From positions 32,001 to 96,000 of the IMG/VR virus record IMGVR_UViG_3300025924_000017: a stretch of 64,000 nucleotides of DNA; one strand, given 5' to 3'. The notes under the pieces are model-generated. The model did not search any database, had not been told where the DNA came from, and worked only from the letters and a program-made list of their open reading frames with translations. This stretch comes from a virus. Taxonomy: Duplodnaviria > Caudoviricetes. Both the position numbers and the translations under genes were made by a program. Below, in pieces: positions 14,541-30,480 of this stretch; within the stretch, counting starts at the first letter, position 1, and every line of letters begins with the position of its first letter.

Positions 14541-15176
14541 CCCAAGCACGCGGGCGTTTACCAACGCCGCGAATAGGTTAACGGGTGGGACTTTTGAGAT
14601 TGCGTCTCACTACGCGTTAACCAATGACGCGACTAGGTTAACGAGGCCCATCCGGGCCGTTTACCAAGGCGCGATCTGGGTTAATGCCGCCGCCCAGCCG
14701 AAGGCGGCGAGCGCGATGGTGGCGACGGCGAGGAGCGGGGCGAGTTCGAGCAGCCGGATGGTCATGACGCGATCTCTACCGCGCCTGTCCGCGTTCGTCA
14801 ACAGACTGCCGCGATCTGCGGCACCCGGGCACCACCGCGTCGCGATCCCGGACACCCATGTCATAGATCAGCGATTTCGTGACACATCGCCGAAATGCGC
14901 AACAAAAACAAGGCACTCTGCCATTCCTATGGCTGTGGCCCAAAAGTCATCCCGCAGTGCAGCATCAAGATGTTGTAGTTCCTGACAGTCTGTCAGCACA
15001 GGCCGACCGTCACGACACTCCTTGACAAAATCCTAGACCTGTGACCCGGCGATGTCACCTTTCCGGGCTTTCGTGACCTCGAAATGTCCGGATTTGGCCG
15101 GGAAATGTCCGGATTCGGCCCAAAATCCCCGTTTTCCGCCTCAAAATCCGGGCAAATCGTGTCCGGATACGTCCGG

Positions 15177-15392
15177 ATACCGTGCGCGAGCGCATTGTCC
15201 GGCTGGTCCTACCGCGCGCGAGATCGATCTCTACCGCGCGCAGGCGCATTTGGGCGCCCGGGCCTACCGTGCGCGCCTTCGTTGTCCGGCTGGCCCTACC
15301 GCGCGCAGAATCGTTCTCTACCGTGCGCGCTCGCGTTCTGTGGCGCGTCCTATCGTGCGCGATCTCATTGTCCGGCGCGCCCTACCGCGCGC
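15177..15392 (+). repeat. phased CTACCGYGCGC array (8 copies)
   Basis: starts 15177, 15209, 15231, 15264, 15296, 15318, 15350, 15382. Confidence 0.85.
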
Positions 15393-15564
15393 TGGCGCAT
15401 TAACCGGCGCGGGCACAACCTTAACGGCCGTTAACCTTTCGAGGTCATTGGTTAACGCCCGCCCGCCAGCCCGCTTGCGTTAACCAATTGCCGTCATTGG
15501 TTAACGGCCCTTCAGCGCCCGGCGTTAACCAATTGCCAGCATTGGTTACCGGCCCCGGCGGCGG

Positions 15565-15882
15565 TCACAGACGGCGCACCGCGCCGTCCGCCCCGATCTC
15601 GAACCGGGTCGAAACCTTGGTGCGCTCGAAGAAAGTCCGCTGCCCAGCCAGAATCTCGGCATCCGTGCCGTGATCGACGTCGCCGGGGGCCGGGTCTATG
15701 ACGATATCGCGCCACGGGACCGGCTTGTCATTGTTCACCTTGCGGACTTCGCGCTTCACCGCCGCGCAGATGGCGCGCCAGCGCAGCCCGGGCGCGCAGC
15801 GGAACAGGGCCACGATAGGCCAGTCCGGAACGTTACCCGACAAGACCAGCAGATAGCGTTCCTTGGTCATTTGGCCTCCCAT
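15565..15882 (-). CDS. hypothetical protein
   Basis: last gene of a - strand unit ending at the palindrome cluster. Confidence 0.65.
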   Translation of the reverse strand: MGGQMTKERYLLVLSGNVPDWPIVALFRCAPGLRWRAICAAVKREVRKVNNDKPVPWRDIVIDPAPGDVDHGTDAEILAGQRTFFERTKVSTRFEIGADGAVRRL

Positions 15883-16055
15883 GTCGTGCAGGTTTCACCC
15901 TCCAGCGGTCCCACCGCCATGCGTTCGCGGTTGCCATAGCGCAGCGAGTAGGGCAGGCGTTCCGCAGGCCACGTACAGAGACCCAGCGCCTCCGCCGGGT
16001 CATCGTCCGGCGCGAAGTCCGGGTCGAACCATTTGCAGGTCCCGCAGGTCTTCAT
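15867..16055 (-). CDS. small Cys-rich protein (CGTCKWF...GLC)
   Basis: typical phage CxxC-W-F motif; coupled. Confidence 0.7.
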   Translation of the reverse strand: MKTCGTCKWFDPDFAPDDDPAEALGLCTWPAERLPYSLRYGNRERMAVGPLEGETCTTWEAK

Positions 16056-16354
16056 GCCGTCACCGCCGCGCGTACGATCTCCAGATTACGCCCGGCGCGC
16101 TCGCAGGCGTCGGCGAGTTCCAGCGCCTTGACGCGGTCGCCCGCATCCCGGGCCGCCAGCGCGCGGCCTCCGAAGTCGCGCACCTGCCGGGTGAACGTGT
16201 CCAAGAGGAACGTTGCCAGCGGGTCGCGACTCCTGATCTCGACCGCCCGCTTATGCAGCGCGCGGCCGTGTTCCTCGGCTTGCGCCGCGAAGGCGTTTTC
16301 GACCGATGCCCGCAGGCGTGTGCCGAGGGTGCCTGTCATGCGCACGCGGGCCAC
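16052..16354 (-). CDS. hypothetical protein
   Basis: ATGA coupling with downstream ORF. Confidence 0.55.
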   Translation of the reverse strand: MARVRMTGTLGTRLRASVENAFAAQAEEHGRALHKRAVEIRSRDPLATFLLDTFTRQVRDFGGRALAARDAGDRVKALELADACERAGRNLEIVRAAVTA

Positions 16355-16572
16355 GCAGCGATGCGAGCCTCCTGCCGGGCCATCCGCGCGGCAGCACCCA
16401 CCACAAGCGCGGCGAGCGCGCCGGTCGGCGTGTGTCCGTTGCGGCGCAAACGTGCCACCGTGTTCAATAGCCCGGCGGTAGACCCGCGCGGGGTCTCGAC
16501 CGGCGCGTAATGGATCAGGCAGGCGTCTGCCGCCCCGTAGCGTGTGATGCTATCGCGTTTCCAGCGGGTCAT
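16336..16572 (-). CDS. hypothetical protein
   Basis: ATG 16572 just after upstream stop. Confidence 0.45.
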   Translation of the reverse strand: MTRWKRDSITRYGAADACLIHYAPVETPRGSTAGLLNTVARLRRNGHTPTGALAALVVGAAARMARQEARIAAWPACA

Positions 16573-16576
16573 GCGA

Positions 16577-16969
16577 TCACTGCCCCGGCGCGAGATAGAA
16601 CCGAATCCACTGCGCCACGACCGGGCCATTACCCTTGAAGCCGTCCTCGGACGCTTCCGCCACCCGGGCGATTTCGTCCCATGACTGGTCCGCGCCATCG
16701 GTCGCGAACTGAGCCGCCGCCTCGTGCACGTAATTCGACCCGTAACCGGTCAGCGGGTTTGCCAGAAACGCTCCGCAATTTTCGCAGTGCTGGGGCGTAT
16801 CCGCCTCACCGCCTCCGTAGGAGTAGGGGCCTTTTGGGAACGCATCCGACTCATAGGTGACTTCGTCCGCGATGTTGGCGGGCGCTTTGCCCTCGGCGGT
16901 CAGATCACGCCGGATGGCATTGCCGCAATCTTCACAGTAGAGCGCGGCCCGGTAGACAAAAGCTTTCAT
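16577..16969 (-). CDS. hypothetical protein (YCEDC...FPKGPY..GGGEADTPQHCENC...NPLT)
   Basis: ATG is part of the CGGAGTCGCAAATG leader. Confidence 0.85.
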   Translation of the reverse strand: MKAFVYRAALYCEDCGNAIRRDLTAEGKAPANIADEVTYESDAFPKGPYSYGGGEADTPQHCENCGAFLANPLTGYGSNYVHEAAAQFATDGADQSWDEIARVAEASEDGFKGNGPVVAQWIRFYLAPGQ

Positions 16970-17091
16970 TTGCGACTCCGTTGGTTCTTGATTGTGCGCC
17001 CTTGTAGCATGGAATTATTTTGTCTGTCAAGGGTTGACAGTTCAGATTTCGCCGTGCTAGAACAGCGTCACAACGAAAAACGGAGTCGCGA
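16970..17091. promoter_or_regulatory. divergent sigma70 promoter pair
   Basis: ttattttgtctgtcaagggTTGACA; -10 GCTAGAAC (+) and GCTACAAG (-). Confidence 0.85.
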
Positions 17092-17301
17092 ATGAAACGG
17101 AAAGGTGTAACGGGTTTGAAACTGTGGCGCGCCCGCGTCCAGAAAGTCTACGCCTCGCTGGCCGAACTGCGGGCCTATGACGAGACGTTCGAGATCGTGA
17201 AGCGCTGCGGCTATCGCAACGCGGAATCGCTGTGGAACGCCAACCCCCTATTGCAGGGTTCGACCCACCCGGCGGATTTTGGAGTCGCAAATGCACACTG
17301 A
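17092..17301 (+). CDS. hypothetical protein
   Basis: leader-preceded ATG. Confidence 0.8.
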   Translation: MKRKGVTGLKLWRARVQKVYASLAELRAYDETFEIVKRCGYRNAESLWNANPLLQGSTHPADFGVANAH

Positions 17302-17491
17302 CGAATTCTGCAAGACCTTGGACGCCTTGGATCGCGCGGACGCGATCAAGGCCATTCACGCCGCTTTCCTCCAACTGAGCGCGATGGGCGTGCAGGTCGA
17401 AGTCAACGGCACGACCTATGACAATGAGCCCGCCATCTCGCGGCTGAAAGCCTGCATGGTCTCCGCCGGTCACATCGGGTTCACGTCATGA
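17291..17491 (+). CDS. hypothetical protein
   Basis: leader GGAGTCGCAAATG embedded in the 3' end of the upstream gene. Confidence 0.75.
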   Translation: MHTDEFCKTLDALDRADAIKAIHAAFLQLSAMGVQVEVNGTTYDNEPAISRLKACMVSAGHIGFTS

Positions 17492-17790
17492 CGGCGCGCC
17501 GGGGCACACGCTCGATCCTGCCGAACAGCAACAGCGCCATCCTCGCGCCGATGGCTTACGGGCTACAAGTCCGCTGGCACGAAGAACTGGACTCGCATGT
17601 GCTCTACCACGGCGAGCAGCGCGTGGCGGGCCATCACAACGGCTTTTCCTGCCACGAACTCGCCAAGCGCATCCTGTCCGGCAATGCCGAACGCGCGACG
17701 GCGCAATTCGACTACATCACCGCGTGTGGCGGTCAGCATTACATCACACACGAAGCCTTCGCAACCATCCTCACAGGAGTCACACACTGA
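17488..17790 (+). CDS. hypothetical protein
   Basis: ATGA coupling. Confidence 0.7.
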   Translation: MTARRGTRSILPNSNSAILAPMAYGLQVRWHEELDSHVLYHGEQRVAGHHNGFSCHELAKRILSGNAERATAQFDYITACGGQHYITHEAFATILTGVTH

Positions 17791-17791
17791 C

Positions 17792-17917
17792 ATGCATACC
17801 CGGCACCACGGCCACGGCCATCACGGTGGCGCGGGCTTCGCGCTCCTCGCCTTCATCCCCGGCTATCGGTTTTTCCTGATGCTGATGGCCTTGATCGTGA
17901 TGTGCGGCGGGACGTGA
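17792..17917 (+). CDS. His-rich single-TM microprotein (paralogue 1)
   Basis: MHTRHHGHGHHGGAGFALLAFIPGYRFFLMLMALIVMCGGT. Confidence 0.75.
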   Translation: MHTRHHGHGHHGGAGFALLAFIPGYRFFLMLMALIVMCGGT

Positions 17918-18128
17918 TCCCACCGCCGTCCGGCACTTGCGTTAACTGTTCGCGGCGATTGGTAAACGCGGGCGAACCGCCGGGCTCAGTCCTCCGGGTA
18001 TGTGGTGGCGCGCGCCGCCTTGTCCCACGAGTAGACATGGAACGCGCGATCAGTTGGGAGAATGAGCCTCATCAACTGGTAAGAGGCCTCAAGATCAATC
18101 GCGCGGGCCAATGCTTCGTATAGGGCTT

Positions 18129-18479
18129 TCATGCGGCGGCGCGCGCCTCGCGTACGACCTCAGCCCATAACGCCTTGCACTCGGCGCGATGCTTCGCCGC
18201 CGCCCCGGGCGTGAACTGGGATTCGAAACTGTCACAGCCCTTCATGAGTTTCCCCAACTGATTGTTGAGCGCGATGGACTCAAAAAGCCCGGTGGTTTTG
18301 TCGCCCGCATTGCGCATGCGGCCCGTGTAGACGATCCAGAGGAAGTCCACGCCCTCAGTTTTGTCATAGGCCGCTTGCCACGCTTCGGGCGTGCCAGCCT
18401 TCACGGCTTCCATGTGGAAGTGTGCGATGGTTTCCGCCAGCACACCCTCACCCAGCAAAAAATCGGCGTGGGACTTCAT
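18129..18479 (-). CDS. hypothetical protein
   Basis: ATGA coupling. Confidence 0.7.
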   Translation of the reverse strand: MKSHADFLLGEGVLAETIAHFHMEAVKAGTPEAWQAAYDKTEGVDFLWIVYTGRMRNAGDKTTGLFESIALNNQLGKLMKGCDSFESQFTPGAAAKHRAECKALWAEVVREARAAA

Positions 18480-18649
18480 GCGGCGGCCTTGTCATACTGG
18501 ATTTTGACGCCGAGACCCTTCGCCTCCCGGTACCACACCGGGTAGATCGAGACCGCTCCCCACGGTTTTGTCTCCGTGACCCAGTAGGTCCACTTCAAGC
18601 GCTCGCTCGGCAACCGCCGATAAGCACGCACCAGAAATTCCGATTTCAT
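18476..18649 (-). CDS. hypothetical protein
   Basis: leader-preceded ATG (MKSEFLVRAY...). Confidence 0.8.
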   Translation of the reverse strand: MKSEFLVRAYRRLPSERLKWTYWVTETKPWGAVSIYPVWYREAKGLGVKIQYDKAAA

Positions 18650-18774
18650 TTGCGACTCCGTGTGTGTTGTTGTGCCGGTCTTATCGCATAAAAGATTTTG
18701 TCCGTCAAGTGTTGACATTCACAAAGCGCCCGGCTATAACCACGCCACAACAACGAACCAACACGGAGTCGCAA
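18650..18774. promoter_or_regulatory. divergent sigma70 promoter pair
   Basis: ttttgtccgtcaagtgTTGACA; GCTATAAC (+), GCGATAAG (-). Confidence 0.85.
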
Positions 18775-19281
18775 GTGAATCACGAACTCAGGATCAAATA
18801 CGGCACTAGCCGCGCCGCCAATACCTACGGTTACGGGCTTGTGAGCCTGTACGACGGCGGTAAGAAAGTCGCGGCCTGCAACGGCGGCGGTTACGACATG
18901 CGCGGGACGGTGTTCGGCGAATGGCTCGAAAAGACCTATCAGGAACGCCTCGTCGCGCTGGCGAAGGCAACCAAGGGCGCATTTGCGCGCGCCAACTGGA
19001 ACGGCGAACTGGGTGACGAGTCGAATTACGTCCGCCTCCCCGCTGATCGCAAGGTCGAGCTTTACGGCGGCACCTATTACGAGAACGGCAGCCGCGAGAG
19101 CGTTCACGGCCGCAAGGGTGCCCAGAAATACATCGCCAAGCCGCCGCATGTGACGTTGGATGGCGGTTGCGGGTTCGAGTCGATTTACCGGATCGCCAAG
19201 GCCATCGGCCTCAACGTCCGCACGGTTGACGCTGGGAAGAAACTCGACATCCTCCTGATCGAGGACACGAAACCCGGGTAA
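18775..19281 (+). CDS. hypothetical protein (GGGYDMRGT...LDGGCG motif)
   Basis: leader with GTG start. Confidence 0.85.
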   Translation: MNHELRIKYGTSRAANTYGYGLVSLYDGGKKVAACNGGGYDMRGTVFGEWLEKTYQERLVALAKATKGAFARANWNGELGDESNYVRLPADRKVELYGGTYYENGSRESVHGRKGAQKYIAKPPHVTLDGGCGFESIYRIAKAIGLNVRTVDAGKKLDILLIEDTKPG

Positions 19282-19359
19282 CAGTTGCGTCACGCCTGCG
19301 CCCTGCGTTCCCAAGACGCGCAGGCTTGACACTCCGGCGGATGCGCCCGCGAAGCCATC

Positions 19360-19410
19360 CGCAAGCCTGCCCCGGCGCTGGATCACTCCGGCGTCGGGGC
19401 TCTTTTTTCT
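19360..19410 (+). terminator. intrinsic terminator
   Basis: GC-rich stem gccccggcgc...gcgtcggggc followed by a T-run. Confidence 0.6.
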
Positions 19411-19462
19411 TGGGATGTTAACCAGTCGCGTCGATTGGTAAACGCGGGTGGCGCGGGCGCGC

Positions 19463-19846
19463 TCAGGTGATCTCGCGCCCGGTGTCGGCACACACGACCG
19501 GCTCATCTTCCTCCGCCATGCAACCGAGCGCCACGACGCGCCAGCCATCGCGCAGATTGAGCCGGACGGCTTCGAGCACGTCGCGCAGGTGTGCGCGGAC
19601 CGCCTCATAGCTCAATATCTCGCCGTCCGAGGTCATGAAGAAACACTCATAGCCGCCGGGCCAAGCGAACTTGCCCGCGCGCAGGGCCGACTTGACCTGC
19701 TGCATCCCTTTCAGGCCCAGAACGAAGTCGCGGCCGTGCACCGCGTAAGCCGCACGCAGCGGCGGCAGCTTGTTCCAGTCCGTGACCCGGGTGTCGTAGA
19801 GATCGCCGCCGGTCGCGACGAACAGGTGATCTGGCAGCTTGCTCAT
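19463..19846 (-). CDS. hypothetical protein (AWPGGY..FFMTSDG family)
   Basis: ATGA-coupled; recurrent phage early-region motif. Confidence 0.75.
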   Translation of the reverse strand: MSKLPDHLFVATGGDLYDTRVTDWNKLPPLRAAYAVHGRDFVLGLKGMQQVKSALRAGKFAWPGGYECFFMTSDGEILSYEAVRAHLRDVLEAVRLNLRDGWRVVALGCMAEEDEPVVCADTGREIT

Positions 19847-20187
19847 AGCAGCACCGTGACCAGTGTCGGCGTGCGCGCTGAGTCCTCTTCCTTGCGGCTG
19901 TCGTAGGGCGTGCGGCCGAGCGCGAACGCCATGACGTCGAACTGTGGGCAATCGCGACCGCCGTTCTTGATGGTCCTGCCACTGTCATGGAAGCACACGT
20001 CCACGCAATCCGCCGGGCCGCCCTTGACATAGGGCTGGAACGCAAACGTCACGCGTTTGCCGTTGCTGAGCTTGGCGGTGATCGTATAGTTGCCATCCGG
20101 AACTTCCACGCACAGATGCGGGTTGGCGTTGAACCCGGCGAAACCCGCCGCGACCGCCTCGTCTTGGGATGCTTCCTTGAAATTCAT
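19843..20187 (-). CDS. hypothetical protein
   Basis: leader-preceded ATG. Confidence 0.8.
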   Translation of the reverse strand: MNFKEASQDEAVAAGFAGFNANPHLCVEVPDGNYTITAKLSNGKRVTFAFQPYVKGGPADCVDVCFHDSGRTIKNGGRDCPQFDVMAFALGRTPYDSRKEEDSARTPTLVTVLL

Positions 20188-20302
20188 TTGCGACTCCGTT
20201 TGTTGTGCGCCTCTTATAGCAGCAATTATTTTGTCCGTCAAGTGTTGACATTCAAAAATGTCCGGGCTATAACGGCCGCAACAAACACAAACGGAGTCGC
20301 AA
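20188..20302. promoter_or_regulatory. divergent sigma70 promoter pair
   Basis: ttattttgtccgtcaagtgTTGACA; GCTATAAC (+), GCTATAAG (-). Confidence 0.9.
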
Positions 20303-20731
20303 ATGGCAAAGCTTTCTGCAAACGGCCGCACGATTGTTGGCAGCATCGATTACATCGCCAGCACAAAGCGCGTCATGTCCGATGGCGTCATTCTGGAGAA
20401 CAAGGGCCACGGCTGGAAGGTCGCGGGCAAGGTGAAGCCGGGCTTCACACCCGAGCAGGCTTTCACGCAGGGCAAGGCCAAGCATGAAGCCACACTCGCC
20501 GCGCGTCCTGCGTTGGCGGCCTATCGCGCCGCCCTGCATGACGCCTGCGGGCTCGCCAAGCGCTGGGCGCTCCACACCGCGATCACCTTGATGCCGGACG
20601 ACCCGGATGGCGTGTGGTCGAACTGCGTGGACAGCTATCCCAAAGTCGATGCGGACCTCGATGACATCGTGAGGCTTTGCGGGCTCTACACCCGCGCCAA
20701 GGCAGAGAAGGAGGAGGCGGCGGTCGCGTAA
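20303..20731 (+). CDS. hypothetical protein
   Basis: leader-preceded ATG. Confidence 0.85.
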   Translation: MAKLSANGRTIVGSIDYIASTKRVMSDGVILENKGHGWKVAGKVKPGFTPEQAFTQGKAKHEATLAARPALAAYRAALHDACGLAKRWALHTAITLMPDDPDGVWSNCVDSYPKVDADLDDIVRLCGLYTRAKAEKEEAAVA

Positions 20732-20817
20732 GCGCCGCCAGCGCGCACGTTTACCAATTGCGGAGATTGGTTACCGCGCGGTATGCGGGCGCGGGGCTCC
20801 AAGCCGCGCCGGTTTGG

Positions 20818-21234
20818 TCAACAATCCGGATCGAAGTCGTGCCACTCCTGCACCTCGTCGGGCTGGCCGTCGTGCTCGTATTCGCCTTCGCCCTCCGGGG
20901 CCAGTAGGGTGGCATCCTGTTCCGGGTCCACGCCAATCTCATGATCGACCGGAAAGCCGCATGAGAAGCCGGACTCGAAGTCCACGCGGATGCAGTGTGC
21001 GCCCTCGTACTCGACTTTCTCGACGGTCTCGAACTCGAACTGGAATTCGGGATGCTCGCTCTTCAGTTGCGGGCTCTCCTCCTTGTTCTCGCACGCGTCG
21101 AAATAAGCTTCGTCGGCGAACCGATCCGCTTCAAGGTCGCAACGCTGGCCGACGCGCAACTGATTCACCCGGCACTTGACGACGCCTTGCCGCTCGACCG
21201 TGTTGACCGTGTTCGATCCGTCGCCCCGGCTCAT
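20818..21234 (-). CDS. acidic protein ending DGQPDEVQEWHDFDPDC
   Basis: ATGA coupling; C-terminal motif common in phage proteins. Confidence 0.75.
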   Translation of the reverse strand: MSRGDGSNTVNTVERQGVVKCRVNQLRVGQRCDLEADRFADEAYFDACENKEESPQLKSEHPEFQFEFETVEKVEYEGAHCIRVDFESGFSCGFPVDHEIGVDPEQDATLLAPEGEGEYEHDGQPDEVQEWHDFDPDC

Positions 21235-21491
21235 TGCACGACCTCCGACGCATCGACAAACACCCAATGGTGCGTTGCCTCAAAGCGAAACAGCGAACGC
21301 GGCTTTTCCGCCAGCGTGCGCAGGTCGCCCTCGGCGAGCATGTCCGGCGTGGCGGTGACCACAAGACACGGCCCCTGACCGCCCGGCACGGACTTGACCG
21401 GCGTTCCCGCCGGGATCGTGAGATCGTAGCCGAATTGCGGCGCGGAACTACCCGGCACCCAGCGCTTCGTGATCGTTTCCTTGATCTGCAT
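21231..21491 (-). CDS. hypothetical protein
   Basis: leader-preceded ATG. Confidence 0.8.
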   Translation of the reverse strand: MQIKETITKRWVPGSSAPQFGYDLTIPAGTPVKSVPGGQGPCLVVTATPDMLAEGDLRTLAEKPRSLFRFEATHHWVFVDASEVVQ

Positions 21492-21724
21492 TTGCGACTC
21501 CGTTTTTCGTTTTCAGTGACGCCCTTATAGCCGAAAGAAATTTGTCCGTCAAGTGTTGACAATTCAAAATCGTTCGGCTATATCTATGCACGACACGGGG
21601 ATGGGGCCGTACGGTAAGCCCCTGCGGCGCGGAAGACGCCAAGGCCCCCGGTGCTGGTCCCACGGAAAGACCAACGGCAAGGGGTTCACCGGCCCCGCGC
21701 CCAAAAGATTGAACGGAGTCGCAA
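21492..21724. promoter_or_regulatory. divergent promoter pair with an extra structured ~125-nt + strand leader
   Basis: core at 21537-21561; GCTATATC (+), GCTATAAG (-); hairpins in 21603-21696. Confidence 0.8.
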
Positions 21725-21967: not shown

Positions 21968-21968
21968 T

Positions 21969-22733: not shown

Positions 22734-22734
22734 C

Positions 22735-23068: not shown

Positions 23069-23308
23069 ATGAACCCTGAAGTGGATTTTGATTTTCACCA
23101 GAGCTTTTCGCTCACGATGGTCTACTGCATGAACCCGAACGCCTTGGCGCATATGCAGGAGCACACCGGCGACGAAGCCCAGTGGATGGGCGACGGCATC
23201 GCCGTCGAGAACCGCTATGCACCGGACCTGAGCGCCGAACTTTGCCGCGCAGGCTTCACGGTCGGACTGCCGGACGGTCGCGTCGTGACGGCGGAGGACC
23301 TGCGCTAA
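23069..23308 (+). CDS. hypothetical protein
   Basis: leader-preceded ATG. Confidence 0.8.
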   Translation: MNPEVDFDFHQSFSLTMVYCMNPNALAHMQEHTGDEAQWMGDGIAVENRYAPDLSAELCRAGFTVGLPDGRVVTAEDLR

Positions 23309-23784
23309 TGAACGAGCGCATCGAATTCGTGCGGGCCTACATCGCCGTGCAATGCACCGCGCCGGACGGCACGACCGGGGACTTTCTGTTCCGGAAGAAT
23401 GACAAGGGCGAGCGTGAACTGATCTCGCCCGTGTTCGCGGACCTGTCACCGCTGCATGACTGGCTGGAAATGAACGGTTGGGAACAGGAATCGTTTGACT
23501 CGCTGCATCCTGTTGGCGTGTTCCGCCGCGATCCGGATTACTGGTATCACAACAGCAACGAACTCCAGTGCGAGCGCATTTTCCGGACGGACGGCGGCAT
23601 CGTGAAATTGGACCACGGCGTCCCCGGCGATGGCACGCGGTGGCGTGTCGCGGACTGGACCGGCAAGAAGTTCGAGCACGATACGGGCTGGGCCTATTAC
23701 GAGAACACGATAGAGCCTTGCGATCTGATCGACCGTTTGCCAGACGATTGGGACAAGAAACAGCCTCGCAAAACGGCAGGCTGA
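23308..23784 (+). CDS. hypothetical protein
   Basis: TAATG coupling. Confidence 0.75.
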   Translation: MNERIEFVRAYIAVQCTAPDGTTGDFLFRKNDKGERELISPVFADLSPLHDWLEMNGWEQESFDSLHPVGVFRRDPDYWYHNSNELQCERIFRTDGGIVKLDHGVPGDGTRWRVADWTGKKFEHDTGWAYYENTIEPCDLIDRLPDDWDKKQPRKTAG

Positions 23785-23790
23785 GGCGAC

Positions 23791-23822
23791 CGGCGCGGGA
23801 GATTGCGACTCTCCCCGCGCCG
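23791..23822. terminator. hairpin with TTGCGAC loop
   Basis: cggcgcgggaga-ttgcgac-tctccccgcgccg; identical copy at 24982-25013. Confidence 0.75.
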
Positions 23823-23989
23823 TGTTCGCGACCGCCTTAACCAATTGCGGCGACTGGTTAATACGAGGCTGGAAACAGACGGCGGATCGCAAGTCCGGAT
23901 GCGCCCCGGAAGTTCCGGGCTGGTGGGCTGTCTCCCACGAGGTGCACCTTACAACCGCCGTCTCAACTGATGCACACACCCTAGCGCAG

Positions 23990-24063
23990 GAAAGCTTTAT
24001 TGTCAACCCTTGACAGACGAAATAATCCCCGCTATAAGAGCGCCACAACCAACGGAGTCGCAA
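23990..24063 (+). promoter_or_regulatory. promoter core in inverted orientation
   Basis: tgtcaaccc TTGACAgacgaaataa...GCTATAAG is the reverse complement of the usual core. Confidence 0.8.
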
Positions 24064-24756
24064 ATGTCCGAACACATCGCACACACCGAGCACGACGAGG
24101 AAACCGGCGTCACGCTCAAAATCATCAACGATCCGCATGGCAGCGAGTCGCCCCTCGAACACGATAGCGCGGTGATCTTCGCGGTCCTGCACCGGCGGTA
24201 CATCAACCCGGCGAAAGACGCGGCTGCGTACAAGCGCAACGGCGACTCTTACGACTTCACCACGGTCGAAGGCATTGCGGAATTCGAGAAGGCGAACGGC
24301 GCGATCAACGCGCAGTGGGCCGTGTTCCCGTTGTTCATGTACGATCATTCGGGCACGATCTACAGCGCCAGTTCCGGAGCCAATCCGTTCCACTGTCCAT
24401 GGGACTCGGGCCGCGTCGGTATTATCGCGCTTAAGAAGAGCGAAGTCGGTAAGCCCGGCAAGAAAGTCCGCAACGCCAAGCGCGAAGTGGTCTACACCGT
24501 AGGCAGCTATCTGGAACAGGCGCAAGCCGTCGCCAAGAACTACACCGACTGGGCCAACGGCAACATTTGGGGCTATGTGGTCGAAGACGCGGACGGCGAG
24601 CACATCGACTCGTGTTGGGGCTTCATCGGCGATCACGACGACGAACACCTGATGGCAGAAGCCCACAGCGCCTATCACGACGCGATCAAGGACGCGAACG
24701 CGGCGAACGCCCGCGACCTCGAAGCCGACCGCGCCGATATGTATGCGGGGGCGTGA
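24064..24756 (+). CDS. conserved MGE protein (MYDHSG...CPWDSG...DSCWGF family), function unknown
   Basis: leader-preceded ATG; motif recurrent in phages and plasmids. Confidence 0.85.
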   Translation: MSEHIAHTEHDEETGVTLKIINDPHGSESPLEHDSAVIFAVLHRRYINPAKDAAAYKRNGDSYDFTTVEGIAEFEKANGAINAQWAVFPLFMYDHSGTIYSASSGANPFHCPWDSGRVGIIALKKSEVGKPGKKVRNAKREVVYTVGSYLEQAQAVAKNYTDWANGNIWGYVVEDADGEHIDSCWGFIGDHDDEHLMAEAHSAYHDAIKDANAANARDLEADRADMYAGA

Positions 24757-24965
24757 TGGCGAAGCCACGGCGGCAGACGCTATGGAGCTACACGGTCGCG
24801 GCGACGGGCCAGACTATCGAGCCCGTCAACCTCTACCTGCTTCCCGGCGTGCGCTACGCCCTGCGCGCGCTTCACGGCGCGGACGGCTTCAGCGAGCGCC
24901 TCTTAGGTCAAGGCCGCCTCATGAGTGACGGCACTGTGACCGACCTGATACCGCCGCCGGGTTGA
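24756..24965 (+). CDS. hypothetical protein
   Basis: TGATG coupling. Confidence 0.6.
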   Translation: MAKPRRQTLWSYTVAATGQTIEPVNLYLLPGVRYALRALHGADGFSERLLGQGRLMSDGTVTDLIPPPG

Positions 24966-24981
24966 CCGGCGACGTGGCGAC

Positions 24982-25013
24982 CGGCGCGGGAGATTGCGAC
25001 TCTCCCCGCGCCG
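24982..25013. terminator. hairpin with TTGCGAC loop (copy 2)
   Basis: identical to 23791-23822, followed by tttcgctt. Confidence 0.75.
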
Positions 25014-25141
25014 TTTCGCTTAAGAGGCCTTAACCAATTGGCGTGATCGGTTAACGTTGATAGCGCGGATTATTTTGTCCGTCAAGTGTTGACAATCAAA
25101 AATCTCTGTGCGATAAGACGCCCACAAACACGGAGTCGCAA

Positions 25142-25375
25142 ATGAAGCCGATCACGAGAATAGCAACGTTCGACGGAAAAGAGCACCGCGATGCACTCGC
25201 AGCAGAGCGCCACCTAGACGAGGAATTCGGTCGGCGCGTGTCGGCGCTCGGTCACAAGTTCGCGCCTGCGGGTGTGAAGTACAGCGAGTTCCACAAGCTG
25301 GTCGAGGAGAACCTGCACGTGTTCGCAGAGCTTCTCCGGATCAAGGCCGACTTGAAAATCGAGGAGGAGGATTGA
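25142..25375 (+). CDS. hypothetical protein
   Basis: promoter core 25071-25094 plus leader. Confidence 0.8.
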   Translation: MKPITRIATFDGKEHRDALAAERHLDEEFGRRVSALGHKFAPAGVKYSEFHKLVEENLHVFAELLRIKADLKIEEED

Positions 25376-25588
25376 ATGGCGCACGAATGGAAGCGCTGCG
25401 GACTCCTGCGGTTTGACTCCGGGGTCCGCACGGTGTGGAAAAGACCGCGCGATGATCGAGAATCGGGGTTTGTGTTCCAGTCCACACGCAACCCCGATAT
25501 TGAACCCGCCCCCGGCTGCGGCGGGTATTACGACGCGCACGGCATGGCGAGGTCCGCCGGTGGGCGGTTGGAATTGACAGAGGATTGA
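25376..25588 (+). CDS. hypothetical protein
   Basis: abuts upstream stop. Confidence 0.6.
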   Translation: MAHEWKRCGLLRFDSGVRTVWKRPRDDRESGFVFQSTRNPDIEPAPGCGGYYDAHGMARSAGGRLELTED

Positions 25589-25603
25589 GGGCCGATCAGG
25601 TCC

Positions 25604-25640
25604 CGCGCCCGCCGCCGATTGCGACCCGGCGGCGGGCGCG
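25604..25640. terminator. 14-bp hairpin with ATTGCGACC loop between convergent genes
   Basis: cgcgcccgccgccg-attgcgacc-cggcggcgggcgcg then ttt. Confidence 0.75.
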
Positions 25641-25693
25641 TTTGCGTTGGTCGCGTTAACCAGTCACCGCAATTGGTAAACGCGCGCGCCGCC

Positions 25694-25840
25694 CTACCTC
25701 GGCGCGATCTCACCCAGCCGCTTGAGCCAGCCCTGCGTGTTGAACCACGCGCACACGGTTGGCATGAACCAAAGGCGCGAGCTTTGGCCGCTGTTCTGAA
25801 ATGCGGCTTCCCACATGATCGCCTGACCGAGGTGCTTCAT
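25694..25840 (-). CDS. small hypothetical protein
   Basis: MKHLGQAIMWEAAF...; ATGA-coupled to upstream gene. Confidence 0.55.
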   Translation of the reverse strand: MKHLGQAIMWEAAFQNSGQSSRLWFMPTVCAWFNTQGWLKRLGEIAPR

Positions 25841-26175
25841 GCAACCACCCCGGCCAGAATTCCATCCGCCAGCGCCGCACGCTTTGCGCGCATCGTGTGC
25901 GCCGGATCGTGGTCCGAAATGTAGGCCGCGAAGTAGCGCTCGTCGAACTTGAAAAAGCCAAGCCGCACGTCGGCCGTGGTCGCCTCGCAGATGGCGAAGC
26001 CCACGCTCGTGTAGTGCATCGGCGGCAGCATTTCGAGAAAGTACCAGTAGGTTTCCTCGTCTACTTCCACAAACCCGGCGAGCAGCCGGGCGCGGTCGAA
26101 GCGCTGGGCATGCGGAAGCTCCGGATTGAGCCAGCCGTAAAACCCGTCCTTATCGAATTTGCCTTCGAACTTCAT
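25837..26175 (-). CDS. DUF1419-like protein
   Basis: EVDEETYWYFLEMLPPM motif; leader-preceded. Confidence 0.6.
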   Translation of the reverse strand: MKFEGKFDKDGFYGWLNPELPHAQRFDRARLLAGFVEVDEETYWYFLEMLPPMHYTSVGFAICEATTADVRLGFFKFDERYFAAYISDHDPAHTMRAKRAALADGILAGVVA

Positions 26176-26291
26176 TTGCGACTCCGTTTGTTTGCAGGCA
26201 CCTTATCGCATAAAACATTTTGTCTGTCAACAGTTGACAATTCAAATTCTGCCGTGCTATAGAGGCGGCACAAACAGAAACGGAGTCGCAA
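26176..26291. promoter_or_regulatory. divergent sigma70 promoter pair
   Basis: ttttgtctgtcaacagTTGACA; GCTATAGA (+), GCGATAAG (-). Confidence 0.85.
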
Positions 26292-26684
26292 ATGAAGTAT
26301 GCAGTCAATGAACAAGGGCAGGTCACCTGCGACGGCGAGCCTATGCTCGTACTCGCGCAGGCCGTTTGGGGCGATGGTGCGCCGAGCGCCGCCGCCCGGG
26401 ATGTTGCCCAGCAGCGCGCCAAAGACGCTTTCAAGGCGCTGGAGTTGATCGAACGCCTCGCCCGCATGGGTTTTTACGCCTACCCGGACGGCGAAAGCTT
26501 TTCCGACGCGCAGGCCGAAGACGCGCTGGTCGTGCTCAACCAGATGATCGAGAACGCGCGCAAGCTTGCCCCGGATGCAGTCCCCGGCCCATATATCACG
26601 ACCGGGCACGACCTCGACGGCGACGGGCCTTGGTATGCGCCGGGCATCGGCGAAGTCGAAGCCCCGCAGGAGGATCAGCCATGA
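26292..26684 (+). CDS. hypothetical protein
   Basis: leader-preceded ATG. Confidence 0.8.
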   Translation: MKYAVNEQGQVTCDGEPMLVLAQAVWGDGAPSAAARDVAQQRAKDAFKALELIERLARMGFYAYPDGESFSDAQAEDALVVLNQMIENARKLAPDAVPGPYITTGHDLDGDGPWYAPGIGEVEAPQEDQP

Positions 26685-26749
26685 TCTAGCACGACGGCGA
26701 AGTCCTCGACCTCGGTTTGCGTTCCACAGCGGAACGCCGACCGGGCTGA
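26681..26749 (+). pseudogene. relic paralogue of 27271..27429
   Basis: MI*HDGEVLDL vs MPYHDGEVLGL (TAG in place of TAC) plus shared cgccgaccggg. Confidence 0.6.
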
Positions 26750-26829
26750 GGCCCTTAACCAATTACCGCAACCGGTTAACGCCCGCGACGAGAGAGGGCA
26801 GCGCGGCCTTACGACCGCGCTGGACCTCC

Positions 26830-26994
26830 TCACTCCATTTCCTCTGCCCCATCCTGCACCGTGTGCGCGGTAATGTCGTAACGCTCTAGTTGCGCGTTCA
26901 CGGCATCCATTGCAGCACCGACGCCGGTCTCTGCTTCGCTCCTTGAGTCCGCCGCGATCACGAACGCGACCGTAACAATGAACTGTTTTCCCAT
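26830..26994 (-). CDS. small hypothetical protein (54 aa)
   Basis: leader-preceded MGKQFIVTVAFVIAADS... Confidence 0.75.
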   Translation of the reverse strand: MGKQFIVTVAFVIAADSRSEAETGVGAAMDAVNAQLERYDITAHTVQDGAEEME

Positions 26995-27116
26995 TTGCGA
27001 CTCCGTTGTTTGTTTTCAGTACGGTTGGTATAGCACGACGGATTCTAAAATGTCAACACTTGACGGACAGAATAATTTGTGCGATAAGGTTCGCACAACA
27101 ACCAACGGAGTCGCAA
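26995..27116. promoter_or_regulatory. divergent promoter pair, core inverted
   Basis: tgtcaacacTTGACGgacagaataa is the reverse complement of the core; GCGATAAG (+), GCTATACC (-). Confidence 0.85.
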
Positions 27117-27284
27117 ATGAAGTATGATTTTCGGACAGCCGACAACGCCGCTAAGCCCCACGTCGCTGTTGTGGAAGTGGAGAGCGGCGAGACGGCTGCA
27201 ATTGTCTACATCAAAGACGGGAAAGTTGATGACGCTGAACGTCTGGCCGAGCTTTGCGTGGGGGTGTTCAATGCCCTACCATGA
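27117..27284 (+). CDS. small hypothetical protein
   Basis: leader-preceded ATG. Confidence 0.75.
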   Translation: MKYDFRTADNAAKPHVAVVEVESGETAAIVYIKDGKVDDAERLAELCVGVFNALP

Positions 27285-27429
27285 CGGCGAAGTCCTCGGC
27301 CTCGACGCTGACGGTTGTGTGATCCAGTGGGACGCCGACCGGGGCGCGGCCTACAATTCCGGCGAGACGCTGGAAGAGTTCGGCGCGGACAATCTGCGCG
27401 CCCACGAACGCGGGAGGCTGGGCCTATGA
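27271..27429 (+). CDS. small hypothetical protein
   Basis: MPYHDGEVLGLDADG... Confidence 0.65.
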   Translation: MPYHDGEVLGLDADGCVIQWDADRGAAYNSGETLEEFGADNLRAHERGRLGL

Positions 27430-27632
27430 GCAGTTGGATTTATCGCGTCGAGCTAAACGCACGCAAGGCCGGGGACATCGGCACGTTCACGCGCTGCACG
27501 TTCGATGTTATCGCCGAGCAGGCGCGCGGCGCGGATGGAGCGTACACCCGGGCCATCGCAAAGGCCACCGCGCACGGCTACGAAACACGCGGCGCAAATA
27601 GCGCTGTGCGTATGAGCGAGGTACACGCATGA
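27426..27632 (+). CDS. hypothetical protein
   Basis: ATGA coupling. Confidence 0.65.
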   Translation: MSSWIYRVELNARKAGDIGTFTRCTFDVIAEQARGADGAYTRAIAKATAHGYETRGANSAVRMSEVHA

Positions 27633-27805
27633 GCGAAGACGCGATCAGCGGCAAAGACATCCGCGAGTTCCGGCTCTACTTGAAGCAATGCACCGACCGG
27701 CAGGTTGAGGGCGTGTTCGAGCGTGAGAAGGCCGCAGGCCGGGAGACGTATATGGAACTTGCCCGCGCCGAGGCCGAGCACCGGGGCATTACCATCTGGG
27801 GCTGA
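27629..27805 (+). CDS. hypothetical protein (58 aa)
   Basis: ATGA coupling; MSEDAISGKDIREFRLYL... Confidence 0.65.
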   Translation: MSEDAISGKDIREFRLYLKQCTDRQVEGVFEREKAAGRETYMELARAEAEHRGITIWG

Positions 27806-27907
27806 CCACCATGTCATAAAATCCCCCAACTGTGACATGCCGAGTCAACGATTCCAACAGCTTAGGCCCTGCCTGTCACGTTTCACGAAACCTAGGAAAG
27901 GAAACCC

Positions 27908-28048
27908 ATGCATTCAGGCCATCACCGCCACCACGGCGGACATCATGGCGGGCACCACCTCGGCGCGCTCGCCTTCCTCGCCCTGCTTCCCGGCTATCGC
28001 TTCTTTTTGATGCTCGCCTTAGTCGTGGTCCTGTGCGGCGGCACCTGA
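27908..28048 (+). CDS. His-rich single-TM microprotein (paralogue 2)
   Basis: MHSGHHRHHGGHHGGHHLGALAFLALLPGYRFFLMLALVVVLCGGT; RBS aggaaagg. Confidence 0.75.
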   Translation: MHSGHHRHHGGHHGGHHLGALAFLALLPGYRFFLMLALVVVLCGGT

Positions 28049-28141
28049 TACTGTCATTCAAGGGTTGACAATTGACCCCGGCCGTGCGATAAGCCTTGCA
28101 ACGTCGGGATGACCCGGCGACAATCCAAACCGGAGTCGCAA

Positions 28142-28738
28142 ATGGCAAAAGAACAGTTCGCATTGCTCGCCGTGAATGAAACGGACAATTGGGACCAGTC
28201 CATTCTGGACAAGCACGGCTTTGAAGCCGCGTTCGGCGTCTACTTGATCCGCCTCGGCGAGGCCACGCATTGTTGCAGCCTCACCGCGTCAACGTGGGCC
28301 GAGTTTTACGAGAACGCCTTCATTTACGATCACGAAGACGCGGCGGCCGACAAAGCGGCGGAAGACCTCGCCCACGAGAACGGCGGCGAGTTCGGGCGCT
28401 ATCTCACCTACGTCGATCCTGACCAGAAGAGCCGCTACCTCGGCGCGGCGATCACGGTCGAAGTGGACGCGGATGAATTCGAAGGCGGCAAGAAATCCGA
28501 CGCCTATCACGAGGCAATCTGGACGGAAGCCCGCGAGGCCGCAGCCACCGGCGCGATCAGCGAACCGGCGATCCTGTGGAGCGAGGAATACTACGCCCAG
28601 CAGGAAGAGTACGCCGCCAAGCGACGCGCAGAGAACCGCAGGCCCTTGGCGCGCCCGATCCTGCCGTTGTTCTTCGCCGCCGCCCAGCGCGACGGATTCG
28701 CCACGTACGAAGGCGCAATCGAGCACGGCTGGCTTTGA
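28142..28738 (+). CDS. acidic hypothetical protein
   Basis: TTGACA/GCGATAAG promoter plus leader. Confidence 0.85.
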   Translation: MAKEQFALLAVNETDNWDQSILDKHGFEAAFGVYLIRLGEATHCCSLTASTWAEFYENAFIYDHEDAAADKAAEDLAHENGGEFGRYLTYVDPDQKSRYLGAAITVEVDADEFEGGKKSDAYHEAIWTEAREAAATGAISEPAILWSEEYYAQQEEYAAKRRAENRRPLARPILPLFFAAAQRDGFATYEGAIEHGWL

Positions 28739-29001
28739 TCCTGCGCGTGCCCTGCCACGGGCCACGCAGTACACCGGCCCGGCGCTGCCTGTCACGGCAC
28801 GCCGGGCCGGAGCATTTTGGGCGCATTATTTTGTCCTAAAGGTGTTGACAATTGGATTCCGCCCGGCTATAACACCGCCATGCCTCGCGGCGACAGAGCA
28901 GGACCTCTGGAAGGCGCGGCGCGAAGTCCTCCCGGGAAAGCCCGCCAGACGCGGGATCGCAGGGAGGCCGGGACACGCGGACCCGCCGATCTGCGCCGAG
29001 C

Positions 29002-29058
29002 CTACCTTGCGCGATATCGTGCGCTACCGTGCGCACTACCTTGCGCGCTACCGTTCGC
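29002..29058 (+). repeat. CTACCKYGCGC array (5 copies)
   Basis: starts 29002, 29014, 29024, 29036, 29048. Confidence 0.8.
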
Positions 29059-29238
29059 TGGCACGATCTGGGGCGCGCGCCGTCCGGCGCGGCCTGTGCC
29101 CGCGTTTACCAGTTGGAAGGATTGGTTAACGCCGCCTCGGAGTCCGCGTTAACCAATTGCGGCTATTGGTTAAGACCATCGCAAATTTTGTTAACCATAG
29201 GGCGTGCCGATCTGGCACGCCCACGATCTGCCGCGTGG

Positions 29239-29691
29239 CTAGGCGCTCTCCTCCTTTCGAGCCTTGACGCGCACGTAGGGCTTCTCCTCGTAGTGATCGA
29301 TCTTCTCGCCGGAGGGAAGGTCCCACGGCATGAGCATGAAGGTCACGCCAAAGGGATGGAATTCCGCGTTCTGGGGCGACAGGTTTTCAGCCTTCATGTA
29401 ACTGGCGATGTACCAGTCGCGCGCGTCACCCTCGAACGTGAAGCAGGTCTTGTTGGAGCGCAGACGATACGCAGGCAACGCGCCCACCAGATAGATGGCA
29501 TGATCCGTATAGGTGTCACCAGCCTTGAACTGCCCACGGCGCACGCCGTCCATCTCTGCCGTGTAGGTGTTCGTGCGATCATACTCCGCACCTTCGTAAG
29601 TCACACCACTGATCGTGACGGACACGGGCTTGATGTTGGAGAGATGGCCGAGGGATGCGAGGTAGGCCACGACGTTTGCGGAAACAGACAT
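29239..29691 (-). CDS. hypothetical protein
   Basis: leader-preceded ATG. Confidence 0.85.
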   Translation of the reverse strand: MSVSANVVAYLASLGHLSNIKPVSVTISGVTYEGAEYDRTNTYTAEMDGVRRGQFKAGDTYTDHAIYLVGALPAYRLRSNKTCFTFEGDARDWYIASYMKAENLSPQNAEFHPFGVTFMLMPWDLPSGEKIDHYEEKPYVRVKARKEESA

Positions 29692-29802
29692 TTGCGACTC
29701 CGTTGTTGTGCGCACTTTATGGCATGCCTTGTTTTGTCTGTCAAGGGTTGACATATAGAATTCTTCGCGCTATAACGGCAGCACAAACAAACGGAGTCGC
29801 AA
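29692..29802. promoter_or_regulatory. divergent sigma70 promoter pair
   Basis: ttgttttgtctgtcaagggTTGACA; GCTATAAC (+), GCCATAAA (-). Confidence 0.85.
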
Positions 29803-30198
29803 ATGATCTCACACGCAGACGTTCTCAAAATCGACCGCGCCATCTCCGGCAAGCTGGTCGAGCTTGCCATCGCCAAAGGCTACAGCCTGACCGTCCGCAC
29901 GAACGACGACGACGCGCACAACGTCATCAAGTCGCGCGATCCGAAGGTGATCCTCGACGAACTTCATTCCGTGGACGACGAGCGCCTCTATGTGCACGAT
30001 GCAAACGGAAAGCGCCTCGGCTGGATTTACTTCGTGTTCGGCGAATCCGGCTGGGACGTGATCTGCGATCACACCACAGGCCGGGCGATCACGGAACTGG
30101 TGGACACAGGCCCGATCAAGGCGATCTCGGATGGTATCTGCGAGAACCCGGAGAACTGGAGCGCGATACTCGCGCAGAACGGCGCGGCAGTCGGCTGA
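29803..30198 (+). CDS. hypothetical protein (GWIYFVFGESGWDVICD family)
   Basis: leader-preceded ATG. Confidence 0.85.
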   Translation: MISHADVLKIDRAISGKLVELAIAKGYSLTVRTNDDDAHNVIKSRDPKVILDELHSVDDERLYVHDANGKRLGWIYFVFGESGWDVICDHTTGRAITELVDTGPIKAISDGICENPENWSAILAQNGAAVG

Positions 30199-30200
30199 GC

Positions 30201-30267
30201 CTACGGCGCGCTACCGTTCGCTGGCGCGCTTCCTACCGTGCGCGCTACCTTGCGCTCTACCGTTCGC
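30201..30267 (+). repeat. CTACC array (5 copies)
   Basis: starts 30201, 30211, 30233, 30245, 30257. Confidence 0.8.
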
Positions 30268-30480
30268 TGGCGCGATCTGGGGCGCTGGCGCGCGCCAGCC
30301 CGGCGGCGGCGGTATGGTTAACGAAAATCGCCCCGGCGTTAACCAATTCAGTGTATTGGTTAACGCGCCGTTAACCACGTCGGCGCCCTGTCCCGATCTG
30401 GCACAAACGCGTCGAGGCGCAAGCGGCTGAGCCGCTTGCGCCTCGCGTAGGGTTTGGAGTGCGGCGCCGCGCCGCGCGGA

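Follow-up and report, generated by a model that had tools for sequence, protein, structure and literature searches.

A strictly spaced palindrome at the 3' ends of early-gene cassettes in a phiCbK-type jumbo phage, a candidate boundary element for host CtrA

The DNA considered here is a stretch of 64,000 nucleotides ('the window'; bases 32001-96000 of the 225,611-bp viral contig IMGVR_UViG_3300025924_000017, 59% G+C), in which an inverted repeat of fixed spacing, referred to below as the palindrome, recurs 17 times downstream of terL, the gene for the large terminase. The 911-amino acid product of terL aligns with the intein-containing terminases of the phiCbK family over 98% of its length; since it is only 52-53% identical to those of phiCbK and relatives, and 67% identical to a terminase fragment on the closest relative, an 11-kb metagenomic contig (L123), we assign the phage, on the strength of its terminase, to the phiCbK-type jumbo siphophages (Dolichocephalovirinae and kin), among which it stands at some distance. 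Phages of this type carry a direct terminal repeat of 10-17 kb; it starts within terL or directly behind it and encodes small early genes without assigned function, its left end lying 779 bp ahead of the terL stop codon (PMC3556154); by position, the equivalent end here would be at about window 13761. Special conservation of the DNA preceding the phiCbK left terminus was considered and set aside, as this DNA is 22/23 identical here, yet other stretches of terL match equally well.

Working downstream from terL, we see a series of early-gene cassettes built to a common design: back-to-back sigma-70-type promoters (TTGACR-N15-GCTATAAS), which we take to match the housekeeping promoter consensus of Caulobacter, fire outward into a leader, followed by one to four small genes and then by the palindrome. 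The leader, GGAGTCGCAAATG, is near-identical after each promoter and is present in 27 copies in the genome, 25 of them in the block (window 16967-32450). The 20 larger proteins of the block gave no informative Pfam domain and no DNA-binding domain when scanned against Pfam.

The pattern GTTAACCAAT-N7-ATTGGTTAAC is matched 15 times when up to three mismatches are allowed and 17 times in a whole-genome scan with up to five, the weakest two copies being those at 14659 and 17941; dinucleotide-preserving shuffles (n = 100) gave no match. All 17 copies fall within about 16 kb (window 14556-30364; Table 1) and the remainder of the genome has none. A sequence-only reading of the window had described the same 17 copies, with clusters at 14556-14685, 15430-15550 and 29104-29174 and none outside the block, and the recount bears this out, the confinement now holding for the complete contig, so that the copies are not scattered genome-wide. 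The exact 7-bp spacing it had reported is likewise found in every copy (17/17), and of nine nearby pairs of exact TTAACC and GGTTAA hexamers in palindrome orientation, eight have a gap of 13 bp and none a gap of 12 or 14. Its 10-bp arms hold as a pattern but prove too short: a count over the 34 half-sites gives C-G-T-T-(A/t)-A-C-C-A-(A/g)-T, with T3, A5 and C6 invariant and C7 kept in 33, and because the C preceding the G is present in 31/34, the true arm is 11 bp long (CGTTAACCAAT). The only common variant of the arm is TTTA (GTTTACC, T-for-A at arm position 4), seen in 8/34 half-sites. Taken as a whole, the element is an inverted pair of half-sites with the consensus CGTTAACCA(A/G)T, whose TTAA cores lie 21 bp apart (two helical turns) with 17 bp between them. 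The spacers are G+C-rich and, as had been noted, asymmetric, the base beside the left arm (+ strand) being T in nine copies (TGC in six), with the same form on the - strand in two; all 17 differ from each other. Searching the literature with the motif strings turned up no account of the palindrome, and there is none in Mascolo et al. 2022 or Gill et al. 2012.

The position of the palindrome with respect to the transcription units is just as regular. Using our own gene calls, each of the nine convergent junctions between 14 and 31 kb carries at least one palindrome, compared with none of the nine divergent, promoter-bearing junctions of the block; the earlier claim that one copy usually sits where convergent units meet is thereby upheld, with the addition that three tandem junctions also have a palindrome. 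No copy is found at the 11 convergent junctions elsewhere in the genome. The distance from palindrome to flanking stop codon is 12-70 bp. Beyond 30.9 kb the cassettes lack the palindrome and end instead in ordinary G+C-rich hairpin-plus-T terminators. Because palindromes are found at all convergent ends of the block, and the palindrome-free cassettes use ordinary terminators, cassettes in the block have, in effect, the element as their standard 3' boundary.

Table 1. Positions of the palindrome copies and associated genes (window coordinates unless marked as contig)
Feature	Position	Strand	Remarks
terL (large terminase, intein-containing)	11805-14540	+	
Palindrome copy 1	14556..14582		3 mismatches; 15 bp past terL stop codon
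Palindrome copy 2	14616..14642		2 mismatches
Palindrome copy 3	14659..14685		weakest, 5 mismatches; overlaps a weak, doubtful open reading frame (ORF)
Palindrome copy 4	15430..15456		opens triplet downstream of first minus-strand cassette
Palindrome copy 5	15479..15505		perfect match
Palindrome copy 6	15524..15550		14 bp from stop codon of gene 15565-15870 (-)
Palindrome copy 7	17941..17967		4 mismatches; convergent junction
Palindrome copy 8	19417..19443		convergent junction, right behind canonical hairpin-plus-T-run terminator 19369-19400
Palindrome copy 9	20749..20775		convergent junction
Palindrome copy 10	22244..22270		convergent junction
Palindrome copy 11	23836..23862		between tandem + cassettes, upstream of next promoter
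Palindrome copy 12	25029..25055		between tandem + cassettes, immediately ahead of promoter 25068-25124
Palindrome copy 13	25655..25681		convergent junction; spacer reversed
Palindrome copy 14	26754..26780		convergent junction; spacer reversed
Palindrome copy 15	29104..29130		opens pair located after CTACC repeat array
Palindrome copy 16	29148..29174		followed by TTAACCAT half-site at 29191-29198
Palindrome copy 17	30338..30364		perfect; right TTAA is left half of TTAA-N7-TTAA box 30360-30374, the only one in the genome
Early-gene cassette array delimited by palindromes	15565..30693		promoters, leader, 1-4 small genes, palindrome
248-aa recombinase-like gene	contig 144178-144924	-	common to phiCbK, Colossus and 308-kb relative
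393-aa phage-type integrase	contig 167427-168608 (L002 904-2085)	+	among relatives searched, only in this genome
GcrA homologue	contig 214470-214862	+	outside window

Relatives of the phage were scanned across their whole genomes for GTTAACC-N13-GGTTAAC with up to two mismatches, the reversed pattern serving as control (0-1 matches; 0 for the five Caulobacter phages). The core of the element, TTAACC-N13-GGTTAA, is kept in L123, in a 156-kb contig and in phiCbK, Rogue, Karma, BL10, BL57 and Bajun; that is to say, the outer hexamers and the 13-bp gap are fixed across phages, with the inner arm and spacer varying by lineage. It is always located downstream of terL and, barring a weak two-mismatch match at 42089 of phiCbK, is found nowhere else in the complete genomes searched. 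In each of the Caulobacter phages phiCbK, Rogue, Karma, BL10 and BL57 the terminal repeat has exactly four sites, ~815 and 1900-2100 bp in from its mapped left end; Brevundimonas phage Bajun, with a terminase ~50% identical, has one site 51 bp past terL plus sites at both of the convergent junctions there; and the 156-kb contig (51% G+C) has five within the 7 kb that follow terL. The same scan gave zero matches or one weak match for Colossus, a 308-kb relative and Sphingobium phage Lacusarx, the weak match belonging to Lacusarx, a more distant relative that does have a terminal repeat. Among IMG/VR viral contigs, the full 20-base pattern had no match and a 14-base core gave single, chance-like matches only. 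L123 repeats the layout of the present phage with about 10 palindromes: terL is followed by one palindrome, an array of CTACCGYGCGC repeats, three further palindromes, and then cassettes whose convergent ends each bear a palindrome. As this same layout surrounds a gene content that mostly differs, the non-coding framework has been conserved while the genes turned over. Complementarity between the inner arms is often missing in the Caulobacter phages; together with the fixed gap between hexamers, this argues for recognition of two TTAACC half-sites held at a set distance. The palindrome is clearly real and functional and, judging from its distribution, is an old cis-element of the phiCbK-type terminal repeat that has multiplied in this phage and its closest relative.

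Several explanations for such an element need to be weighed, the simplest of which requires no protein: the palindromes would be RNA hairpins, either bidirectional terminators that lack a U-tract or 3' stem-loops that shield early transcripts from exonucleases, made alike by copy-and-paste evolution of the cassettes. This would suit their location exactly at the 3' ends of units, shortly past the stop codons, as well as the -13 to -18 kcal/mol reached by perfect copies, the ordinary terminators of palindrome-free cassettes, and the fact that promoters and leaders are just as standardised as the palindromes themselves. Yet, over the 17 copies, arm positions pair in 84.5% of cases compared with 85.4 +/- 1.1% when partner arms are shuffled among copies, with just one double change, so that the arms lack the pairing kept by compensating changes that characterises a structured RNA; each arm strays from the consensus independently, like two protein half-sites and unlike a selected stem. 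Eight copies have GTTTACC in one arm, leaving an unpaired A:A or T:T at position 4, and imperfect copies form either no palindromic hairpin or one no better than shuffles (z -0.3 to -1.6), several preferring other folds. The stem, with 4 G:C of 11 pairs, is A+T-rich in a genome of about 60% G+C and none of the 17 copies is followed by a T-run, their flanks being G+C-rich, and so the G+C-rich stem and U-tract of an intrinsic terminator are both missing. Sites of the phiCbK type pair over the outer 6-8 bp only (leaving an 11-13-nt loop), yet keep the TTAACC letters and spacing strictly; the copy at 19417 sits directly behind a canonical terminator; and no Rfam family matches the palindrome. Since the arms show no compensation and the weaker copies no hairpin, selection appears to act on sequence rather than pairing, which points to a protein site, and we consider it quite unlikely that the element works as RNA alone. 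A different proposal, made in the sequence-only reading, is that the copies are tyrosine-recombinase core sites, here for shuffling or inverting cassettes. Every copy does have the corresponding geometry (inverted 10/11-bp arms about an asymmetric spacer of 6-8 bp, here 7), a cassette gene (21969-22160) is inverted and displaced in L123, and, whilst it holds that the window contains no recombinase, our search beyond it found two Phage_integrase-family genes (contig 144211-144795 and 168024-168416). Other counts speak against the proposal. Tyrosine recombinases require matching overlap regions between their sites, and with 17 different spacers strand exchange between copies would be blocked; conservation across phages is lowest in the bases adjacent to the spacer; the smaller recombinase-like gene is carried not only by phiCbK but by two phages that lack the palindrome, Colossus and the 308-kb relative, so that its distribution does not follow that of the element; and the 393-aa integrase, among the relatives searched, is confined to this genome whereas the palindromes are common to relatives. 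The ~100-bp repeats of promoter plus leader offer a simpler route to homologous exchange and cassette shuffling, and a RAYT-type transposase gene (Y1 transposase, PF01797) is absent from the whole genome as well. A role in recombination is unlikely, and we give the specific proposal of core sites scarcely any credence. The integrase is in itself an unexpected gene for a phage type known as strictly lytic. Lastly, the palindromes could be DNA-level signals of the terminal repeat, namely recognition sites for the small terminase, T5-like pauses in ejection, or elements that flank an origin formed by the CTACC arrays. The ancestral copies of the five Caulobacter phages do lie at constant distances from the mapped left end, and palindrome-free Colossus has its left terminus elsewhere and an imprecise right terminus (PMC3556154); the mapped right terminus of phiCbK is 19 bp past a CGTTAACCAT half-site of the palindrome-arm type (NC_019405 10262-10287); and, both here (as triplets) and in L123, palindromes flank the CTACCGYGCGC array right after terL. 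Precedent is found in T5, the injection-stop region of which contains paired boxes for the host replication regulator DnaA, as well as repeats and palindromes (Davison, bioRxiv 10.1101/866236): there, too, a long terminal repeat carries pre-early genes, and conserved non-coding repeats resemble the sites of a host replication or cell-cycle regulator while neighbouring genes turn over, except that the T5 elements are packed into one non-coding region of 1.2-1.7 kb at the inner edge of the repeat, and those described here are spread out, one per unit end. Small-terminase sites, however, usually cluster near the cut, and neither the contrast between convergent and divergent junctions over 16 kb nor the same placement in Bajun is explained. 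The suggestion of ejection or packaging signals, which also goes back to the sequence-only reading, might thus apply to a few ancestral copies near the left end of the repeat but leaves the convergent junctions unaccounted for; as a general explanation we find it improbable.

The letters of the arms lead us to a candidate protein. Footprinted sites for the Caulobacter cell-cycle response regulator CtrA read TTAACCA (ctrA-P1, fliQ), TTAACCAGT (ctrA-P2) and CGTTAACCA (ccrM, reverse strand), with TTTA tolerated in pilA region 1 (PMC3751295 Table 2), and TTAACCAT is a recognised ungapped CtrA motif (PMC6180460). The arms of the palindrome are identical to the footprinted half-sites of ctrA-P1, ctrA-P2, fliQ and ccrM, and their one common variant equals that of pilA region 1. 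Moreover, phiCbK-type phages gather TTAA-N7-TTAA boxes in their terminal repeats, where CtrA binds them and regulates transcription (PMC9437464). Across four phages, the density of TTAA in the region after terL exceeds that of the remaining genome 3.5- to 22-fold (per kb, inside/outside: this phage 1.69/0.48; phiCbK 3.21/0.24; Colossus 3.41/0.52; Bajun 4.5/0.20), and the present phage thus concentrates TTAA-type sites after terL and has few elsewhere. Counted per repeat (or post-terL region), palindromes and canonical boxes number 17/1 in this phage, ~10/0 in L123, 5/0 in the 156-kb contig, 4/3 in phiCbK, 3-5/10 in Bajun, 0/12 in Colossus and 0/14 in the 308-kb relative; because the two run inversely across phages, this suggests that palindrome and box stand in for each other. 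As its arms equal footprinted CtrA half-sites, the palindrome is most likely bound by host CtrA, probably in the phosphorylated form. We therefore tentatively favour, at slightly less than even odds, a symmetric, protein-bound boundary element of the early cassettes for which CtrA would be the most likely binder. A transcription roadblock or insulator, with a hint of CtrA, was among the suggestions of the sequence-only reading, and it is the one best served by the 3'-end placement, the independent arms, the match to CtrA half-sites and the location in a CtrA-box region, although the geometry of the full site differs from that of a known CtrA site.

This difference heads the points that weigh against our reading. 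Every copy has 17 bp between its TTAA cores, compared with 7 bp in the documented site. Nor do the copies take up the origin or promoter positions typical of CtrA, which sits at -35 where it activates and at -10 where it represses: they are found at 3' ends, with only those at 23836 and 25029 preceding a promoter. CtrA is known to activate or repress from promoter-proximal sites and to silence origins; it is not known as a 3'-end roadblock. phiCbK keeps palindromes and canonical boxes apart, each at conserved positions of its own, which suggests that they differ in role or are bound by different proteins. Colossus has the same host species and no palindrome. The perfect copies fold stably (z -2.3 to -3.9 at the energies given above), so that the transcribed RNA may make a contribution of its own. 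Finally, the exact pattern is not enriched in the chromosomes of 101 Caulobacteraceae, with 6 matches against 11 for the reversed control, and hence no place for the palindrome in the host CtrA regulon is apparent; a companion count in 31 Caulobacteraceae genomes gave 345 for TTAAC-N5-GTTAA and 634 for TTAAC-N15-GTTAA (controls 531 and 549), and carries no weight either way, the intended positive control being itself unenriched.

The same lack of enrichment in host-family chromosomes counts in favour of an alternative, namely that the sites, acting in the same way as symmetric boundaries or operators, are bound by a dimeric phage protein or another host protein; for instance, one whose late binding shuts down or insulates the early cassettes in the manner of stoperators. 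A dedicated dimeric regulator would typically have such a site, with arms of 10-11 bp about a 7-bp spacer of fixed length. From one lineage to another the inner arm (AAT/ATT in this phage, TTA/TAA elsewhere) changes on both sides together, as it would with a co-evolving phage protein, and the distinct positions of palindromes and canonical CtrA boxes in phiCbK could be counted here too. Exactly those phages that bear the palindrome (this phage, phiCbK, Bajun and the 156-kb contig) encode a homologue of GcrA, which Colossus and the 308-kb relative lack. That co-occurrence depends, however, on a single evolutionary contrast, and GcrA is described in PMC9976885 as acting as a monomer on methylated GANTC, a motif present in the cassette leaders and lacking from the palindrome. 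The larger block proteins, as said, offer no DNA-binding domain, and a tblastn search with 387 predicted proteins against phiCbK, Bajun and Colossus left three common to phiCbK and Bajun but not Colossus, none of which resembles a DNA-binding protein and one of which is present also in palindrome-free Lacusarx. Because the outer arm, TTAACC, is unchanged across phages of different host genera, a conserved host factor fits better than a phage protein; all told, a binder other than CtrA is the main rival reading, and seems to us possible, if on the unlikely side. Comparison with stoperators, which in Cluster A mycobacteriophages are reportedly bound by the L5 repressor gp71, is instructive in this respect. 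They too are present as many copies of a short site in intergenic gaps and are presumed to block transcribing polymerase rather than to act at promoters; they are, however, asymmetric, 13-14 bp long, orientation-dependent, distributed genome-wide and bound by the temperate phage's own repressor, in contrast to symmetric sites of 27-29 bp confined to one early block of 16 kb in a phage whose type is known to be lytic. Bacterial REP/BIME palindromes share with the present element their shortness, their imperfection and their location after stop codons, often between convergent genes, and have been proposed to function in termination, mRNA stability or gyrase binding; REP sequences nevertheless keep their pairing and are mobilised by RAYT transposases, whereas the present element shows no co-variation between arms and has kept its letters even in distant phages. 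Alternatively, the palindromes might serve as A+T-rich landing places at which the positive supercoils of converging transcription are relieved, for example by the Caulobacter nucleoid protein GapR with gyrase or topoisomerase IV. Such A+T-rich islands do lie exactly between converging, strongly promoted units, and GapR is said to build up at the 3' ends of highly transcribed convergent genes. GapR has no known sequence requirement, though, and the letters and exact spacing are conserved across distant phages; copies are found, besides, at tandem junctions and in the phiCbK repeat, where all genes run one way. We hold this last proposal to be very improbable.

In returning to a boundary element bound by CtrA, we infer a mechanism along the following lines. 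The two inverted CGTTAACCA(A/G)T half-sites, two helical turns apart, would form a single site of two-fold symmetry, the ancestral state of which would be four copies at fixed places just past the terminase gene in the phiCbK-type terminal repeat; multiplication in this phage and its closest relative would then have made it the standard 3' boundary of each early cassette. Phosphorylated host CtrA would occupy the palindrome, and an occupied palindrome would stop or insulate transcription arriving from both sides of a convergent junction, tying the early region to the cell-cycle state of the host. A more specific version of this idea, which we put forward as unlikely but worth stating, is that of CtrA-gated insulators at convergent 3' ends rather than promoters, such that the presence (swarmer) or absence (stalked) of CtrA decides whether polymerases stop or collide; with the GANTC of the leaders and the phage-encoded GcrA, the cassettes would read both arms of the oscillator. 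If true, a host response regulator would be in use as a roadblock, and by way of a new CtrA binding geometry. The nearest described system, the CtrA-box terminal repeats of phiCbK-like phages (PMC9437464), has in common with the present one the phage family, the region after terL, the small early genes, the intergenic half-sites of TTAAC type and the scarcity of TTAA elsewhere. It differs in that the published boxes are TTAA-N7-TTAA placed beside promoters, whilst in this phage inverted half-sites with cores 17 bp apart, at 3' ends and convergent junctions, have nearly replaced the boxes (17 versus 1).

Some further features of the region can be recorded alongside. The CTACCGYGCGC direct repeats are arranged in arrays, all on the + strand (window 15177-15392, 29002-29058 and 30201-30267; L123 2232-2624 and 8419), with the repeats spaced 12, 22 or 32 bp and each array just upstream of a palindrome or cluster, a layout that L123 retains; they could be iterons or the sites of another protein. 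A cassette promoter of full consensus at 28824-28880 has neither leader nor ORF behind it (window 28824-29200), and its predicted transcript would cover ~120 nt before crossing the CTACC array and reaching a pair of palindromes, perhaps as a non-coding early RNA. Every leader has a GANTC site (GAGTCG), GANTC being the motif for CcrM methylation and GcrA recognition, and GANTCGCAAAT is found also in the Caulobacter ctrA-P1 promoter; the cassettes may, in view of these motifs and of the phage-encoded GcrA homologue, respond to the host cell cycle through its GcrA/CcrM arm as well. With regard to base composition, TTAA occurs 131 times in this genome against 396 expected (~3-fold rarer) and is concentrated after terL; AATT is altogether missing from the 207 kb of Brevundimonas phage Bajun, which looks like avoidance of a restriction site. 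Away from phages, a degenerate-pattern scan of 185,579 species genomes listed matches mostly in low-G+C Firmicutes and Treponema. Among the matches listed, a Hyphomonadaceae genome has a single GTTAACC-N13-GGTTAAC site between fliR and a histidine kinase gene (L227 3399-3425), and two Rhodobacteraceae genomes have one, with a further, central TTAA, ahead of a gene for an SNase-like nuclease (L255 2799-2825 and L238 3524-3550); these single alphaproteobacterial sites may be CtrA operators of three half-sites. These few matches had looked meaningful, but they reflect ascertainment bias in view of the 6 versus 11 count in the unbiased sample of 101 Caulobacteraceae.

As to what the element means for this family, research on the Caulobacter cell cycle uses phiCbK as a standard tool, and that CtrA controls the genes of its terminal repeat was first proposed in 2022 ('lytic deferment', Mascolo et al. 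2022, PMC9437464). To the boxes of that proposal the palindrome adds a second, previously undescribed class of TTAAC-type element, strictly spaced, at fixed positions in all phiCbK-type Caulobacter phages tested, and expanded in the present phage to one palindrome per transcription-unit end. Should CtrA bind it, a two-turn spacing and action at 3' ends would be added to the known modes of CtrA recognition, and 'lytic deferment' would gain a concrete cis-element in a tractable phage (phiCbK 819-845 and 1905-2059); should another protein bind it instead, that protein would be a conserved regulator of the early region that has so far escaped notice. In either case, the unusually regular cassettes, with their paired promoters, fixed leader and fixed boundary, may be of interest for the evolution of phage early genes and as insulated expression units for Alphaproteobacteria.

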